Assembly (NCBI GenBank): GCA_016181305.1 | Contig: JACOZN010000021.1 | Location: 1-30,203 of the forward strand | DNA length: 30,203 nucleotides | Direction of reading: 5' to 3' | Origin: Candidatus Woesearchaeota archaeon | Lineage (GTDB): Archaea; Nanobdellota; Nanobdellia; Woesearchaeales; GW2011-AR4 | Shown: in pieces, positions 4,136 through 16,533 of the stretch | How positions within the stretch are numbered: position 1 is the stretch's first letter | How the letters are laid out: every line of letters begins with the position of its first letter | Made by a program: the position numbers and the translations under genes | The notes under the pieces: generated by a model | The model's database searches: none | What the model was told of the DNA's origin: nothing | The model's input: only the letters and a program-made list of their open reading frames with translations

Positions 4136-4695
4136 GAAAAAAAGACTTGTTTTTGTATGCTGTGATTTTAGTCTTGACAGCCTTATTTCTGTGGCAGTGG
4201 CTTTCAAAAGGCGCTTTGATTCAGCAGCTTCATGAAATGCAGATGGATAATAACGATTTGCATTTGCTGAGCGGTATTGGGAATTTGCGCTCAACCCACA
4301 AGCACGCTGATGTAAAGGTCTACATAAACGGCAATTCAATTGACTTTTCCCAGAGGAAATACCAGCTTGCATCACGATTTATTCATTTTGAGGAAGGCAT
4401 TGGAGATGTTGTCCATGTCCATGCAACAGGCTTGACAATCGGGCATTTGCTTAAGTCGCTGAAAGGCAGCCTGAACAACAACTGCCTTGTTCTTGACGGG
4501 AATAATTACTGCAGCGATAACAGCGGCAAATTAAGGTTTTATGTCAACAACAAGCCAAACAGCGATTTTGGCAGTTATGTTTTCAAGGACTTGGATAAAA
4601 TGCTGATTTCTTACGGCGATGAAGACGATTCAGTGATACAAAAGCAGCTTGATTCTGTGACTAATCTGGCTGCGAGATATAGTGCAGAAGGCTGA
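4132..4695 (+). CDS. Membrane-anchored His-rich putative metal-binding protein
   Basis: N-terminal TM helix; THKHAD..., FIHFEEG...VHVHATG. Start overlaps the upstream stop (ATGA). Recalled similarity to archaeal domains linked to disulfide isomerases is unverified. Confidence 0.75.
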   Translation: MRKKDLFLYAVILVLTALFLWQWLSKGALIQQLHEMQMDNNDLHLLSGIGNLRSTHKHADVKVYINGNSIDFSQRKYQLASRFIHFEEGIGDVVHVHATGLTIGHLLKSLKGSLNNNCLVLDGNNYCSDNSGKLRFYVNNKPNSDFGSYVFKDLDKMLISYGDEDDSVIQKQLDSVTNLAARYSAEG

Positions 4696-12273: not shown

Positions 12274-12834
12274 TTGATCAGCTTTTTTGGCATAGTTTCA
12301 TCGACGTTCTTGGCTATATGGCACTTGTTCCTGCACTGGCTGAGCATATTCGCAGCCCCGATTGAAGAGCCCGAGATGTTCTGGATAATCATTCCTATAT
12401 GGATCAACTGGTTTTTCACTGAGTTTTACCAGGAGAAGAAAGGCACGAGCTTCGGCAACGCCATAAGCAACGGCGCGATTGCAATACTTGCAAGCATTGA
12501 CTGGGCAAGGTACATGCATCGCCTCATTGCAGACGGCATCATAACTAAATTAACTTTTGGAGTCTTTCTCAAATTTTTTACCGCATTTGCAGTTTTTGCA
12601 TACGGGATTTATGTCATTATTGCAGGCATAAAGACAAAAAAGATTGTTTTTTTCATCGGCAAAATAAGGTGGGTTACTTACATCCTTGTCATGTTCACCC
12701 CGATTGTATACAACGTCATAAGAATGGACATCTTTACTTTAATGGCAATACTTGCCTTTTTCCCGCTTTACTACGGCATTATCGAAATTTTTGACAGAAT
12801 AACACCTGAGCCCAGGACTTACCAGCATTCATAG
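12274..12834 (+). CDS. Polytopic membrane protein of unknown function
   Basis: About six hydrophobic segments; SD GAGGTGA at 12265-12271 points to TTG at 12274. Confidence 0.8.
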   Translation: MISFFGIVSSTFLAIWHLFLHWLSIFAAPIEEPEMFWIIIPIWINWFFTEFYQEKKGTSFGNAISNGAIAILASIDWARYMHRLIADGIITKLTFGVFLKFFTAFAVFAYGIYVIIAGIKTKKIVFFIGKIRWVTYILVMFTPIVYNVIRMDIFTLMAILAFFPLYYGIIEIFDRITPEPRTYQHS

Positions 12835-12850
12835 GCTGTCATAGGCTGTC
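12831..12850. repeat. Perfect 10-bp tandem duplication ATAGGCTGTC x2 at the convergent stop codons of the membrane gene and the recombinase
   Basis: Read directly. Confidence 0.9.
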
Positions 12851-13654
12851 CAGGGGGCTTTTCACTTTCTTAAGCTGCTGCGTTGAAACCTTTGTGTAAA
12901 TCTGCGTTGTTGACAGGTCAGCATGCCCGAGCAGTTCCTGGATTACCCGTATGTCTGTGCCTGCCTCGAGCAAATGTGTTGCAAAGCTGCTTCTTAGCGC
13001 ATGGCAGAAAACCCTTTTTTTTATGCCGGCTTTTTTTGCGGCTTCCTTGACAACCTTCTGGGCCTGCCTTGCTGTAATTGGGCGGTTTTTCACTGAAAAA
13101 ATATAGGAGCTTTCATCTCTTTTTGCCTTGATGTAATCAGTCAAATGCTGCATCAGTGTATCCGATAAAATGATATACCTTTCCTTGTTGCCCTTGCCGT
13201 GCTTGATTTTGCCGATTTTTTCAGCCAAGTCAAGATCATCAAGCTTTAATGAAACACATTCGCTCACCCTTAATCCTGAGGAGTACATGAACTCAATCAG
13301 TAATTTGTGCTTTGGGTTTTTGACAGCTTCAAGCATTTTTTTTATCTCTTGTTTTGTCAGCACTGTCGGAAGCTTCTTCTCTGATTTTGGGGCCTTGACT
13401 GCATTAAAGGCTGGATTCCGCAAGATTTCATTGTAGAAGAACTTGAGCGAGCTTAAGGCAAGATTTACGCTCCTTGGCTTGAATTTCCGCTCTGACATCA
13501 GGTAAGCAATGTAGCGCTTTGCATCATTCTCATCAACGCTTTGAGGCTCTTTCTTAACAAAATCAAGGAATTTCCTGTTGTGGTAAATATAAGAGTCAAC
13601 GGTTCGCTTGCTGAAACCCCTTATTTTCAGTTCTGTTTCGAGTTTGTCAAGCAT
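12839..13654 (-). CDS. xerA: Xer-family tyrosine recombinase (XerA-like)
   Basis: Intact catalytic residues: GLRVSE (R), GKGNKER (K), HALRSSFATH (HxxR), LLGH, TTQIYT (Y). SAM-like N-terminus and LPTVLT motif. No IntI-specific insertion before HxxR. Confidence 0.9.
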   Translation of the reverse strand: MLDKLETELKIRGFSKRTVDSYIYHNRKFLDFVKKEPQSVDENDAKRYIAYLMSERKFKPRSVNLALSSLKFFYNEILRNPAFNAVKAPKSEKKLPTVLTKQEIKKMLEAVKNPKHKLLIEFMYSSGLRVSECVSLKLDDLDLAEKIGKIKHGKGNKERYIILSDTLMQHLTDYIKAKRDESSYIFSVKNRPITARQAQKVVKEAAKKAGIKKRVFCHALRSSFATHLLEAGTDIRVIQELLGHADLSTTQIYTKVSTQQLKKVKSPLDSL

Positions 13655-13699
13655 TTTTCACCTTTTTCATTAAAACTTTGACAGAACTAGTATAAAAAA

Positions 13700-13725
13700 C
13701 TTCGCCCAATCCGTATTAGGCGAAC
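13700..13725. repeat. dif-like palindrome CTTCGCCCAAT-CCGT-ATTAGGCGAAC
   Basis: Inverted arms with AAT-N4-ATTA core, the same geometry as E. coli dif (CATAAT-GTAT-ATTATG); lies 46 bp upstream of the xer ATG. Confidence 0.6.
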
Positions 13726-13776
13726 ATTTGCGGACACTTTTTATAATTTCACTCATTAACATTCGTATTAACCAAC

Positions 13777-14313
13777 GAAATAATGGCTTTGATACGCATT
13801 AACTGATGTTTAAGCCTACTGCTAAGCTAAAAATGTAGCATTTTTTAATGCATTTGAAGTTTTTGGTGAAAATGCTCCATTAACTAAAAAAACAAAATCA
13901 ATCCTTCCACCCACCAAACCCCCACCCTCCCGCCCTATGACAATGTTTTTATATTTTGAAATTTTTGAAAGTAATAGATGAAATTTTGGAAAAAGTTGAA
14001 ATATTGGCAGAAAGGTGGTGTTATAGGTTTGATTATTGGATTAGTTAAAATACCATTTTTTGTCTTAATGGGAGAGAGTATGCCTTCTATTTTTGTCTAT
14101 TACGCTGGACTGATACCAGATCAGATGTTATGCAATTTTTTAAATTTAGGCTCTGGGGAAAGTTGTGGTTGGTTTGCCTTGATTTATGGTTTCATTTATA
14201 ATCCAATTTTTTTTGGGATGATAGGGATGATTCTAGGTTTATGTTATTCCTTAATTAAAAAAAAGAGTTCGTCTAATGCCCATAACTAATTTTACAATCA
14301 AAGCCATTATTTC
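13777..14313. repeat. Perfect 17-bp inverted repeat GAAATAATGGCTTTGAT (13777-13793) / ATCAAAGCCATTATTTC (14297-14313) flanking cargo gene 1
   Basis: Read directly. An outer inverted repeat also exists: 13724-13737 / 14382-14395 (14 bp) and 13713-13723 / 14436-14446 (11 bp). Confidence 0.95.
13978..14289 (+). CDS. Cargo gene 1: small AT-rich membrane protein
   Basis: 103 aa with 2-3 hydrophobic helices; TATA-like TTTTTATA upstream; 3' end overlaps half-site GTTCGTCTAAT (14267-14277). Confidence 0.75.
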   Translation: MKFWKKLKYWQKGGVIGLIIGLVKIPFFVLMGESMPSIFVYYAGLIPDQMLCNFLNLGSGESCGWFALIYGFIYNPIFFGMIGMILGLCYSLIKKKSSSNAHN

Positions 14314-14504
14314 TCCTTTTGTCTTCGCCTGTACTTTCGTAAAGCGAACTTTATTTCATAAAGTACAACAAAAGCATTTTTGTGTCCGCAAATGTCTAAT
14401 TTTTCTGCGGAAAAATTGGTGGGCATAAAGCCCACTCGCCTAATACTCGTTTCGTGGCAAAATCGAATTCCTTGCGTCATTCAGATTTATGGAAAACTAT
14501 CGTA

Positions 14505-14974
14505 AAATCGGGTTTGAGAACGCATTAACTAAAACAAATTCAATCCAGCCCCCGTCCAATCCCCCCCGCCACCCACCCCAACGTGAAAACGAGGATTTAA
14601 ATAAAAGAAGTATTCTAAAGAAAATAATGGAAATGATTGGAGAACATAAGTATAGAATTTCTTTTGTTTTGATAACTTTTGTATTTGTAGCTGTTATGGC
14701 ATATTTGCTTATTACCTTTAACTTAAACTCAACCTTCAAACAAATAATCAGCAATCCTATAAATTGGGTTATTATAATTATTATAGTTTATATATACAAA
14801 GATATTAAGCCTATAGTAAAACAGATATGGACTCAAACAGAGGTTAGAGATGATATAGAAAAAGAAACAAAAAATAAGTTGCAATTGGAAAATGAGAAGT
14901 TGAGACTTGAAATTGAAATATTAAAACAAAAAAGTCCGTCTAATAGCCCACGATGAAACACTCAAACCCGATTT
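14505..14974. repeat. Perfect 14-bp inverted repeat AAATCGGGTTTGAG (14505-14518) / CTCAAACCCGATTT (14961-14974) flanking cargo gene 2
   Basis: Read directly. Confidence 0.95.
14627..14956 (+). CDS. Cargo gene 2: AT-rich two-TM protein with C-terminal coiled coil
   Basis: Start moved from 14489 to ATG 14627 because 14489-14626 is the repeated non-coding leader, with TATA-like TTTAAATA at 14596. 3' end overlaps half-site GTCCGTCTAAT (14934-14944). Confidence 0.7.
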   Translation: MEMIGEHKYRISFVLITFVFVAVMAYLLITFNLNSTFKQIISNPINWVIIIIIVYIYKDIKPIVKQIWTQTEVRDDIEKETKNKLQLENEKLRLEIEILKQKSPSNSPR

Positions 14975-15263
14975 CACTCTTTGAACCTTCGCCTAATCCC
15001 TATGGATTAAGCAAACTTTTTAATAAAAAGTCCAGTTCAAACAAGATACTCGCCCAGCAAAGTTTAAAACCTTTCAGGCGTATAATACTCGTTTGGCAAA
15101 CTTTTCTGCGGAAAAGTCAAGCCATTGTGGGTTGCCTCAATGGTCGCCAAACTTTGGGCATTAGATGAACTTTTTTCCCAGAATTATCGACTTTGCCCAG
15201 ATTTTATGCCCGGAGGCAGGGCTTTTTGTGCAAAACACCCAAATATTTTGATTTTTGTTGTTT

Positions 15264-15416
15264 TCACCTGTGATACTTAGGATTCACTCCAATCGCTTTC
15301 ATCTCCTCTGCGCCGCACTCGTTGCACTTGTACAAGTCATACTTTGAATTGCCGCTCTGAATTATTCCTCTCTTCATCATGTTCTCGTTGCATTTCCTGC
15401 ATTTTACATCTGCCAT
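15264..15416 (-). CDS. 50-aa zinc-ribbon protein (missed by the ORF track)
   Basis: MADVKCRKCNENMMKRGIIQSGNSKYDLYKCNECGAEEMKAIGVNPKYHR*, with two CxxC pairs and a TATA-like element upstream. Confidence 0.8.
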   Translation of the reverse strand: MADVKCRKCNENMMKRGIIQSGNSKYDLYKCNECGAEEMKAIGVNPKYHR

Positions 15417-15502
15417 GGCTGTTTTTGTTCAGCGCTTGTTTAAATATCTTTGGATTTCTATTTATTATTTTTAATGTATTGCCTTTCTTTTGTTATTTTT
15501 AG

Positions 15503-15973
15503 TCAATCGCTGGTTTTAGCTGGAATTCTTATTTTGTCGCCGAGGCTTATCCTGTTCCTTATTGCAAAATTTTCATTCACTTCCAAAACATACTTTGCCG
15601 GCTTCGCAGATTTGTACAACGCGCAAGGCTCTGCCCAGCAGGGGACAGCATGCCTGATCTCGACAATCTCAAAATTTCCGTCAATGAAAATCATGTCCAG
15701 AGGAATCAGGGTGTTCTTCATCCAGAAAGTTCTTACTGCATTGTCGCCGAAAACAAACAGCATTCCTGCATCTTCATTTAATTTCCCGCGAAACATCAAG
15801 CCCTTTTCAATTTCATCGCTGTCGTCGGCAATTTCAACGTTTATCTTGATTAGATTTTTTCCATTATCAATCCAAACTTGATTTACACTAACATTTTTTG
15901 CGCAATTTGCTGAAAAAAACAATAAAAAAACTACAAGAAAAATCATCAAAAATTTTGCAGTTTTTTGGCGCAT
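15503..15973 (-). CDS. DUF192 family protein
   Basis: VEIADD...EKGLMFR...GMLFVF...FWMKNTLIPLDMIF...KYVLEVN. ATG at 15973 preferred over TTG at 15994. Confidence 0.9.
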   Translation of the reverse strand: MRQKTAKFLMIFLVVFLLFFSANCAKNVSVNQVWIDNGKNLIKINVEIADDSDEIEKGLMFRGKLNEDAGMLFVFGDNAVRTFWMKNTLIPLDMIFIDGNFEIVEIRHAVPCWAEPCALYKSAKPAKYVLEVNENFAIRNRISLGDKIRIPAKTSD

Positions 15974-16044
15974 TTTTAATGAAATTTTTTTCAAAACTTA
16001 TTAAATTTTTGCTTAAAAATCATACAAAAATCCGGAAAATCACA

Positions 16045-16235
16045 ATTAGAATTTATTAAAATATTTAGTTTTTAATCATATATCTTGAGTGTATTAATAT
16101 ATTTTATTATACCTTTTATATTAATATTATTAAAATAATTATTATTTTATAACTATTTACTAAACTATATTTTCTAATATATATTTTACTCATAATTTTA
16201 TTTTCTATATAGAAAAATATATCTAAAAAGTAATG
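16045..16235. other. Extremely AT-rich non-coding tract in a divergent intergenic region
   Basis: About 190 bp with very few G/C; includes palindrome TTTTCTATATAGAAAA (16201-16216); followed by two TGAG..GTTCC motifs. Confidence 0.7.
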
Positions 16236-16347
16236 TTACAGAGTAAAAAGTGAGAGTTCCTAGAGCAAAAATGAGTGAGTTCCCTATCAGAAAATAACAG
16301 ATTCTTAGCAAAATAGTGTTAGCTGGTAAATCAATACTATCAAGAAA

Positions 16348-16533
16348 ATGGCAACCCTCTTAACAAGATGCTTTGACAAAGCAACAAGGCACTCATATGC
16401 AAAAATGCCAAGCCATAGTTTTGCCCAAATAACCCAGCTTACACATCAAAAATCACTATCTCTTGTTGTGGCGCAGTCAAAAGACACTCAAATTTACATG
16501 CCGTTAGCAAAAAGTGAGACTTTAAGCAATTAG
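16348..16533 (+). CDS. Possible small hypothetical protein
   Basis: 61-aa ATG ORF in otherwise empty space; no motif recognised. Confidence 0.35.
   Translation: MATLLTRCFDKATRHSYAKMPSHSFAQITQLTHQKSLSLVVAQSKDTQIYMPLAKSETLSN

Follow-up and report, generated by a model that had tools for sequence, protein, structure and literature searches.

Gene cassettes framed by nested, covarying inverted repeats at a dif-like site next to the gene of a XerA-family recombinase in Woesearchaeota

Two small genes in a stretch of a groundwater Candidatus Woesearchaeota genome (DPANN; assembly GCA_016181305.1, contig JACOZN010000021.1, positions 1–30,203, all 30,203 nucleotides (nt) of which we call the window) each lie between the complementary arms of an inverted repeat, and the locus raises the question of what such arms are for when the sequence between them is a gene. 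The analysis of the window and of related loci demonstrates the repeats and their covariation, further pairings nested with them, insertion at a conserved site in conserved synteny, and exchange of cargo genes within constant frames. The reading that we favour, with a probability of roughly 0.45, is that the repeats are the helices of a large, element-specific folded attachment (att) domain, belonging to mobile cassettes that insert in a dif-like site adjoining a XerA-family gene.

Repeats and insertion site in the window

The initial annotation of the window had described both inner repeats and an outer one, and all three are present. The repeat around gene 1 pairs 13777–13793 (GAAATAATGGCTTTGAT) with 14297–14313 at all 17 positions, and that around gene 2 pairs 14505–14518 with 14961–14974 at 14 of 14; the latter can be widened to 14502–14518 and 14961–14977, where 16 of 17 positions (94%) are complementary and the single mismatch is A·C. 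Gene 1 has in addition an outer 25-nt repeat, 13713–13737 with 14382–14395 plus 14436–14446, whose right copy is interrupted by a 40-nt insert (14396–14435) containing two small hairpins. ACA stands directly 5′ of both right arms. The motif ACGCATTAACT, reported to follow both left arms, does so at 13794 and 14520, which are its only exact copies in the 1.07-Mb genome (labelled G000), but it is not a general rule among relatives. As a control for chance, 500 dinucleotide shuffles of 13600–15300 were searched for inverted repeats at 100–1500 nt spacing. None gave a repeat longer than 15 nt, compared with 17, 14, and 14 nt in the real sequence; a repeat of at least 14 nt arose in 18 of the 500, and three such repeats in 0 of 500.

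The repeats belong to two elements, A and B, whose parts are as follows (aa, amino acids).

12839–13654, minus strand: gene for a XerA-family tyrosine recombinase, divergent from the array; the 271-aa product matches Pfam Phage_integrase at 161 bits and has a SAM-like N-domain
13700–13725, plus strand: dif-like palindromic site, upstream of the recombinase start by about 45 nt, a hybrid of the host left arm and the element A right arm, conserved at the orthologous gene in relatives with or without cassettes
13713–13737, plus strand: left copy of the outer repeat, made of the element A right site arm (13713–13723) and the outer arm (13724–13737), from the repeat search
13777–13793, plus strand: inner left arm of element A, 17/17 with 14297–14313
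13794–13935, plus strand: leader of element A, with ACGCATTAACT, a hairpin region, a second CATTAACT (13878) and a C-rich block (13896–13935); it precedes cassettes in many relatives
13978–14289, plus strand: cargo gene 1, a small hydrophobic protein of 103 aa that matches no family
14268–14278, plus strand: tail half-site TTCGTCTAATG at the 3′ end of cargo gene 1, with an equivalent tail in relatives
14297–14313, plus strand: inner right arm of element A, from the repeat search
14316–14374, plus strand: local folded module of element A, from alignment and RNAalifold, with helix s (14316–14322 with 14368–14374), an internal palindrome (14324–14349) and hairpin h2 (14348–14364)
14382–14446, plus strand: right copy of the outer repeat, made of the outer arm (14382–14395), the insert (14396–14435) and the element A left site arm (14436–14446)
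14502–14518, plus strand: inner left arm of element B, 17 nt at 94% with a perfect 14-nt core (14505–14518)
14519–14592, plus strand: leader of element B, with ACGCATTAACT and a C-rich block
14627–14956, plus strand: cargo gene 2, 109 aa from the ATG at 14627, with a frame open from 14489 and no family above cut-off
14961–14977, plus strand: inner right arm of element B, from the repeat search
14980–15041, plus strand: local module of element B, with helix s (14980–14986 with 15035–15041), an 11-6-11 palindrome (14988–15015) and hairpin h2
15161–15190, plus strand: host right arm of the dif-like site and host flank ATTAGATGAAC TTTTTTCCCAGAAT, the end of the array, matching the sequence after the empty site in locus L180

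The array stands in a site that relatives also carry. Among 46 recombinase loci collected for comparison, a palindrome of dif geometry (for example CTTCGCCTAATCCGTATTATACGAAC) lies about 45 nt upstream of the recombinase start in most orthologous loci; it is empty in some relatives (L180 and L172) and followed by cassettes in others. In L180, TTTTTTCCTAGAAT and host DNA follow the empty site. The window has the left arm of the host at 13700, whereas its right arm, together with the flank seen in L180, returns only at 15161–15190; because host arms and flank stand at both ends, 13712–15160 is an insertion in the spacer of the site. The order of a 188-aa open reading frame (ORF), recombinase, site, gap, Zn-ribbon gene, and DUF192 gene is the same in relatives, and the gap between recombinase and Zn-ribbon gene measures 1609 nt in the window and 161, 206, 735, 743, 1433, 1603, and 4139 nt in relatives. 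The dif-like palindromes of the array are co-oriented, with the TTCG arm on the left and the CAAA arm on the right.

The recombinase scores 268.2 bits with the NCBIfam model recomb_XerA_Arch, exceeding the cut-off of 220, and 232.7 bits with the integron integrase model TIGR02249, under the cut-off of 265 and in two stretches, the first of which covers profile positions 1–181 of 315. Orthologues with 78–87% identity occur in about 28 Woesearchaeota records. A second Xer-type gene of G000 adjoins coaE (dephospho-CoA kinase) and coaD on contig C5 (54932–55663; locus L210:1468–2250, minus strand); its 260-aa product is 39% identical to the window recombinase and reaches 210.6 bits with the XerA model, under the cut-off. 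Both Xer lineages are widespread in the genus, and the window type lies above the XerA cut-off in 31 of 43 genomes. Since the genome has two Xer-type genes, we do not call the neighbour of the array the housekeeping resolvase.

Covariation of the arms and of further helices

Inner arms fall into seven types, of which the window has A and B; the others (C, D, E, F, and H) come from relatives. Across nine cassettes, 148 of 153 arm cells form Watson–Crick pairs, with at least two pair types at 13 of the 17 positions; the five remaining cells are three G·T, one A·C, and one G·A. As the arms covary over independent cassette types, it is complementarity itself that is maintained. The proposal of the initial annotation, that covariation implies selection for pairing, stands to this extent, but matching is not universal and chimeric cassettes exist. 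In locus L020 the left arm is of type G and the right arm of type A, and the cargo lies on the other strand; L023 combines an A-like left arm with a C-type right arm, and L087 is a further chimera.

The extent of matching depends on how cassettes are anchored. A strict anchor (helix, palindrome, and hairpin) yielded 23 unique right frames. Fifteen of them had a leader no more than 4 kb away, and 14 could be scored; in 11 of these 14 the arm matched its own partner at 15 or more of 17 positions, seven of them perfectly, while 150 of 178 non-cognate arm pairs scored 14 or less. A looser anchor, which missed A-type cassettes, gave 8 matched cassettes out of 16, and a manual tally over unique cassettes gave about 16 matched and about 10 unmatched. 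Thus, the description of each cargo gene as sitting in its own repeat fits the window and does not carry over to all relatives (11/14 by the strict census, 8/16 by the looser one); likewise, the expectation that homologous cassettes elsewhere would have complementary arms is borne out in those fractions, the remainder being unmatched.

The inner arms are not the only element-specific pairing. Outer arms of 13–16 nt, which differ in sequence among types A, C, D, and H, occur 42–65 nt before the inner left arm, directly after the right site arm, and again 68–77 nt after the inner right arm. Past an insert of 13–47 nt that follows the right outer arm, the left site arm complements the element's own right site arm; these site arms are element-specific as well (AGGCG in A and E, ATACG in C and H, TTAAATG in D), both points having been read by eye. 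Finally, helix s, of 7–8 bp, encloses the internal palindrome and a small hairpin. In an alignment of ten right frames, 87.7% of cells are paired and 12 of 24 pairs have changed on both sides, among them 7 of the 8 pairs of helix s. No shuffle out of 500 reached this pairing score, sliding the partner columns lowered the paired fraction to 31–52%, and RNAalifold finds helix s and h2 unaided.

We also built virtual junctions from the right and left parts of five elements, joined through a neutral linker and folded with DNA parameters. Cognate joins gave –37.4 to –51.4 kcal/mol and cross-type joins –11.4 to –31.3 kcal/mol; in the predicted fold, the s module occurs together with the inner stem and the outer hairpin, in the expected three-way layout. 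These computed energies illustrate the complementarity and are not an independent test of it.

Conserved frames with exchangeable cargo

It is non-coding pieces, not genes, that find matches in 22 of 24 sampled genomes of the same genus. In 40 regions collected from relatives, the typical cassette opens with a left arm placed 3′ of ..ACCAAC and continues with a leader (a hairpin, CCATTAAC, an A-rich run, and a C-rich block), a box resembling the transcription factor B recognition element (BRE) and TATA box, and an ORF. The tail is AAGTYCGYCTAAT, which frequently supplies the stop codon, and past it come ..TTACA, the right arm, TCTTTG, and the dif-like palindrome TTCGnnTAATn-5/6-nATTAnnCAAAC. 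Such units are multi-copy within genomes. Five different cargos are found in identical A-type arms and flanks: 103 aa in G000, 110 aa in G016:C2, 138 aa in G022:C73, 113 aa in G049:C52, and, in G016:C30, 2.9 kb that includes a GmrSD/HNH protein. Because the same A-type arms enclose at least five different cargo genes, the arms are not the gene's own, as had first been thought; they are owned by the conserved non-coding frame.

Several comparisons agree on where frame and cargo meet. Homology among relatives ends just past the C-rich block and returns at the tail, and contigs from metagenomes have joints from 13935/13936 to 14288–14294. Between G000 and G016, the non-coding left and right frames are 96.9% and 90.9% identical, compared with 78.7% for the adjacent recombinase gene and 54% for the cargo segment. 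The metagenome runs that held at least half of the sampled words number four, all from one groundwater study and kept as contigs; none of the runs holding the stretch is recorded as RNA. In these four runs, the frames are 10–50 times deeper than the cargo. Depth and the contrast in identity may both be taken as signs of mobility.

Cargo in relatives comprises J-domain proteins, an N6/N4 DNA methylase, S-adenosylmethionine methyltransferases, the GmrSD/HNH protein, an IS200-like Y1 transposase, small membrane proteins, and unknowns, and it lies on either strand between the frames. Three of the loci, L167:930–1481 (minus strand; Y1 transposase), L012:7545–8867 (minus strand; GmrSD/HNH), and L087:420–1370 (N6/N4 DNA methylase), point to cargo of defence and mobile types. 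Neither cargo protein of the window matched anything above cut-off in Pfam or NCBIfam; the product of gene 2 has a hydrophobic N-terminal part and a coiled-coil-like C-terminal part. Frames without cargo were not seen among 83 leaders (duplicates included), the shortest leader-to-tail distance being 320 nt. The strict right-frame pattern occurs at just 9 places in 7 of 43 genus genomes. A pattern scan of metagenomes returned 113 stretches, and 80 of these (L050–L129) were scanned further. Seven of the 80 had the tail and/or the palindrome; no matching left arm was found within 4 kb in any of the seven, with a leader upstream in two and less than 1 kb of upstream sequence in three. A different cassette on one of those contigs (L066) does have matching arms.

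The C-rich block (13896–13935 and 14537–14592 in the window, and the leaders of L010–L049) presents at least four G-runs on the minus strand, a motif of the G-quadruplex type. No other part of the cassette frame is conserved as well, and it is directly past this block that cargo homology is lost.

At the other end, cargo ORFs enter the conserved tail (14261–14282 and 14930–14945 in the window, and the tails in L010 and L011). Several relatives use the TAA within GTCTAAT as stop codon, with proteins ending in ..KKSV*, and both window ORFs cross the tail in another frame. The tail of gene 1 at 14281–14290 (TAATGCCCATAACTAA) resembles the end of the leader hairpin with CATTAACTAA (13869–13888), a likeness that may point to site-like boundaries at a further, inner level, where cargo would be exchanged.

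A proposed folded attachment domain, its alternatives, and known systems

The folded-domain reading would account for a gene inside a covarying repeat as follows. An integrated element would begin with its own right site arm, to which an outer arm is joined. An AT-rich linker would lead to the inner left arm, followed by the leader, the cargo and its own promoter, and the tail. Beyond the inner right arm would come the small folded module (helix s, internal palindrome, and hairpin), the second outer arm, and finally the left site arm of the element itself. Excision as a circle would bring the element ends together, so that the joined site arms and outer arms form one long bulged hairpin or palindrome of 23–25 bp and both palindromes come to lie in a domain, about 200 nt in size, that the 17-bp inner arms close. 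At integration, crossover in the site spacer would split the folded domain and leave its halves on either side of the cargo; a domain split in this way would therefore make the gene appear inside the loop of its own covarying repeat. We infer circularisation, cutting and joining by the neighbouring recombinase, and a fold in single-stranded DNA.

The initial annotation had offered two routes to pairing, in a folded single-stranded DNA or RNA, or after circularisation. Circularisation fits best, given an array in a dif-like site beside an Xer-type recombinase gene, and a single RNA with both arms is unlikely because a promoter lies inside the repeat and runs of T5–T7 lie between left arm and gene. 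The promoter is a reading by eye against the archaeal consensus, by which each cargo appears to have its own BRE/TATA-like element inside the repeat, that of cargo gene 1 being a TATA-like box near 13943–13952.

Several points weigh against a folded att domain. Arms are unmatched in 3 of 14 or 8 of 16 cassettes, which means that a cassette can persist in the chromosome without pairing. Element B has no outer repeat, and in other elements the inserts of 13–47 nt interrupt the outer hairpin. The mismatch classes disagree on which strand folds, as helix s and the palindrome show 23 A·C and 0 G·T on the plus strand and the inner arms three G·T and one A·C. We know of no single-stranded intermediate in these archaea, and the fold is not needed in principle because the internal palindromes alone suffice for double-strand Xer recombination. 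G000 has two Xer-type genes, and it is adjacency that suggests the neighbour as the one acting on the array. No circle, excision joint, or empty/filled polymorphism within one population was found in the assembled contigs of the one study, where rare circles would be undetectable. A joint from 15173 to 14489 via 22 other letters, present in three metagenome runs, is read as another array order or a fuller B-type left frame, not a circle.

Many contigs diverge exactly at 14488, which is 13 nt before the left arm of element B; this suggests a recombination junction there.

The first alternative places the pairing at the level of RNA. The left arm would be carried by a read-through transcript or by a short RNA whose start lies upstream of it; its partner would be the right arm, as part of the 3′ untranslated region in the mRNA of the cognate cargo, and the RNA would act as a cassette-specific regulator, in the manner of a type I toxin–antitoxin system or of mRNA end-pairing. 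By eye, several left arms are preceded, at a distance of about 35 nt, by AT-rich boxes that resemble TATA; the right arm falls between stop codon and T-run, both window cargos are small hydrophobic proteins, and all three mismatches of the type C arms are G·T on the plus strand, which RNA tolerates. However, RNA pairing leaves the outer arms unexplained, since the left one precedes the putative promoter and the right one comes after the T-run, and it does not explain the complementarity of the site arms. The 3′ strand of helix s is past a T5–T7 run, and the right-frame helices hold 0 of 235 cells of the G·U type. Furthermore, large cargo that is not toxin-like exists (the DNA methylase, the GmrSD/HNH protein, and J-domain proteins), and cargo can lie on the opposite strand within the same frames. 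We consider RNA pairing unlikely. An Rfam scan of 12500–16500 at E ≤ 1 returned only SNORD12 and pan, both sub-threshold and at chance level.

The second alternative, to which we likewise give a small chance, is that the repeats are a historical by-product without present function, either because a cassette landed in a pre-existing palindrome or because the frames were copied recently from a small number of palindromic masters. Chimeric cassettes do persist, and A-type frames are identical among G000, G016, G022, and G049; as identical frames are shared between genomes, many of the matched cassettes are not independent. On the other hand, the empty hairpin that such a history would start from was not encountered: no arm-family hairpin with a stem of at least 12 and a loop of up to 150 nt was found in the G000 genome or in L010–L029 (where an N-run in L027 flooded the output), none with a loop of up to 200 nt in the collected loci, and a type A arm pair with a loop of up to 30 nt in 0 of 43 genus genomes. 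The seven diverged arm types pair near-perfectly at 13 variable positions, and four nested helices covary together; both results require that pairing be maintained at least in the master copies.

A third alternative, which we regard as quite improbable, takes the arms as terminal inverted repeats of a non-autonomous transposon similar to a miniature inverted-repeat transposable element, with the transposase encoded elsewhere. Perfect, terminal-looking repeats of 16–18 nt around a short multi-copy unit would suit it, and one relative carries the IS200-like Y1 transposase as cargo. Here, however, the arms vary between copies and the flanks outside them are conserved, the reverse of transposase-bound ends; no target-site duplication is visible by eye, and the units stand in a row at one site beside a recombinase gene with conserved synteny. 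The conserved ends, target duplications, and unrelated flanks by which such transposons are recognized are thus not what this locus presents. Least probable are invertible segments (a phase switch or shufflon) flipped by the neighbouring tyrosine recombinase, for which inverted repeats around genes adjoining such an enzyme would speak, but flipping would not switch expression because promoter and gene both lie inside the repeat (by eye), outer-left and inner-right flanks are mixed in 0 of 65 unique arm contexts of seven types (five script-flagged rows read by eye), no strand-changing joint is found among the 15 joints listed of 16 in the four metagenome runs, the arms are variable and without internal dyad symmetry, and the same repeats around both orientations of the enclosed DNA, as in an inverton or shufflon, were not found.

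Among known systems, mobile cassettes with a folded att domain recall integrons. With these, including the archaeal integrons of Ghaly et al. 2022 (10.1101/2022.02.06.479319), the likeness lies in a tyrosine recombinase gene beside a primary insertion site, a row of mostly single-gene cassettes, and diverse accessory cargo, and in cassette sites with conserved core motifs and variable self-complementary arms, for which a folded single strand is a plausible substrate. As in integrons, the array in the window adjoins both the recombinase gene and the primary insertion site. In contrast, the 271-aa recombinase stays under the TIGR02249 cut-off and does not qualify as an integron integrase with the additional domain specific to IntI. 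The attC sites of integrons are imperfect palindromes of 55–140 nt ending in an R″ core RYYYAAC and an R′ core GTTRRRY. No pair of these cores at 40–130 nt spacing was found on either strand of 13600–15300, and the plus strand of 13690–15260 has one RYYYAAC and zero GTTRRRY; the sites of the window are instead dif-like 11-6-11 palindromes. Other differences are that crossover would split the hairpin and leave its halves around the cargo, where an integron hairpin follows the cargo, that the predicted folded domain measures about 200–450 nt with four nested helices, and that the cassettes have promoters of their own.

Small gene modules between inverted XerC/D sites, shuffled among replicons, are known as the pdif modules of Acinetobacter plasmids. 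The dif-like sites of the window are not inverted brackets but co-oriented, and the 17-nt arms do not resemble Xer sites.

The arrays also work like those of integrative mobile elements exploiting Xer (IMEX), which encode no recombinase, use the chromosome-dimer Xer enzyme of their host, insert in a dif-type site, and form arrays bounded by dif-like sites; the window likewise has an insertion in a dif-type site with host arms at both ends. For CTXphi, a folded single-stranded hairpin serves as attP, and the folded domain proposed for the cassettes may be analogous to it, the evidence here being indirect (nested covarying helices and predicted folds that are specific to cognate joins). Unlike IMEX, the cassettes have archaeal hosts, a single XerA-type enzyme per site, and a site beside the recombinase gene. 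They are also small (0.7–3 kb), with one gene, without replication or virion genes, and built as modular frames with exchangeable cargo; those of the window encode one small protein each. Archaeal IMEX are not mentioned in the review passages available to us (PMC8371274 and PMC5357621). Dimer resolution by archaeal XerA/dif, with a 28-bp site of 11-6-11 geometry, was described by Cortez et al. in 2010 (PMC2958812), and a linked xerA/dif module is described for some archaea in the material available. The window shares the XerA-family enzyme and the 11-6-11 site with that system and differs in that its site is a hotspot holding gene cassettes.

A broader proposal, which we put forward tentatively as possible rather than probable, is that these Woesearchaeota have an independent, integron-like platform for gene capture, in which a XerA-family enzyme moves single-gene cassettes at its own dif-like site, each cassette is known to the enzyme by a large folded domain of single-stranded DNA, with four nested and element-specific helices, that is split around the cargo on integration, and cargo is swapped at the C-rich leader end and the tail half-site. 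Xer-linked cassette arrays in DPANN or Woesearchaeota were not found in the literature as far as it was available, although the tables of the 2022 integron paper, which concern integrase-less Nanoarchaeota clusters, might overlap (10.1101/2022.02.06.479319); nor was an integron-like design of Xer-linked split-hairpin cassettes found in print. If the proposal is true, a folded, self-complementary site for cassette capture arose a second time, on Xer/dif parts rather than IntI/attC, in DPANN genomes of about 1 Mb. It would offer these host-dependent archaea a definite way of trading accessory and defence-type genes among themselves, and would raise the question of whether an archaeal Xer-type enzyme acts on structured or single-stranded substrates, for which the covarying arms define informative mutations and compensations.

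Two minor observations concern repeats elsewhere. In L014 (G011:C27), at about 4291–4330, a truncated A-type arm GAGAAATAATGG abuts the 3′ end of an apparent tRNA gene on the opposite strand, and a full A-type right arm lies 1 kb downstream of it. A separate family of paired hairpins, AGAGAACTTTGAAT..ATTCAAAGTTCTCT followed by TAGAGAATTTTGA..TCAAAATTCTCTA, occurs at no fewer than seven places in G000 (C4:40750, C6:4461, C14:3334, C15:448, C19:61502, C19:130359, and C20:4116).

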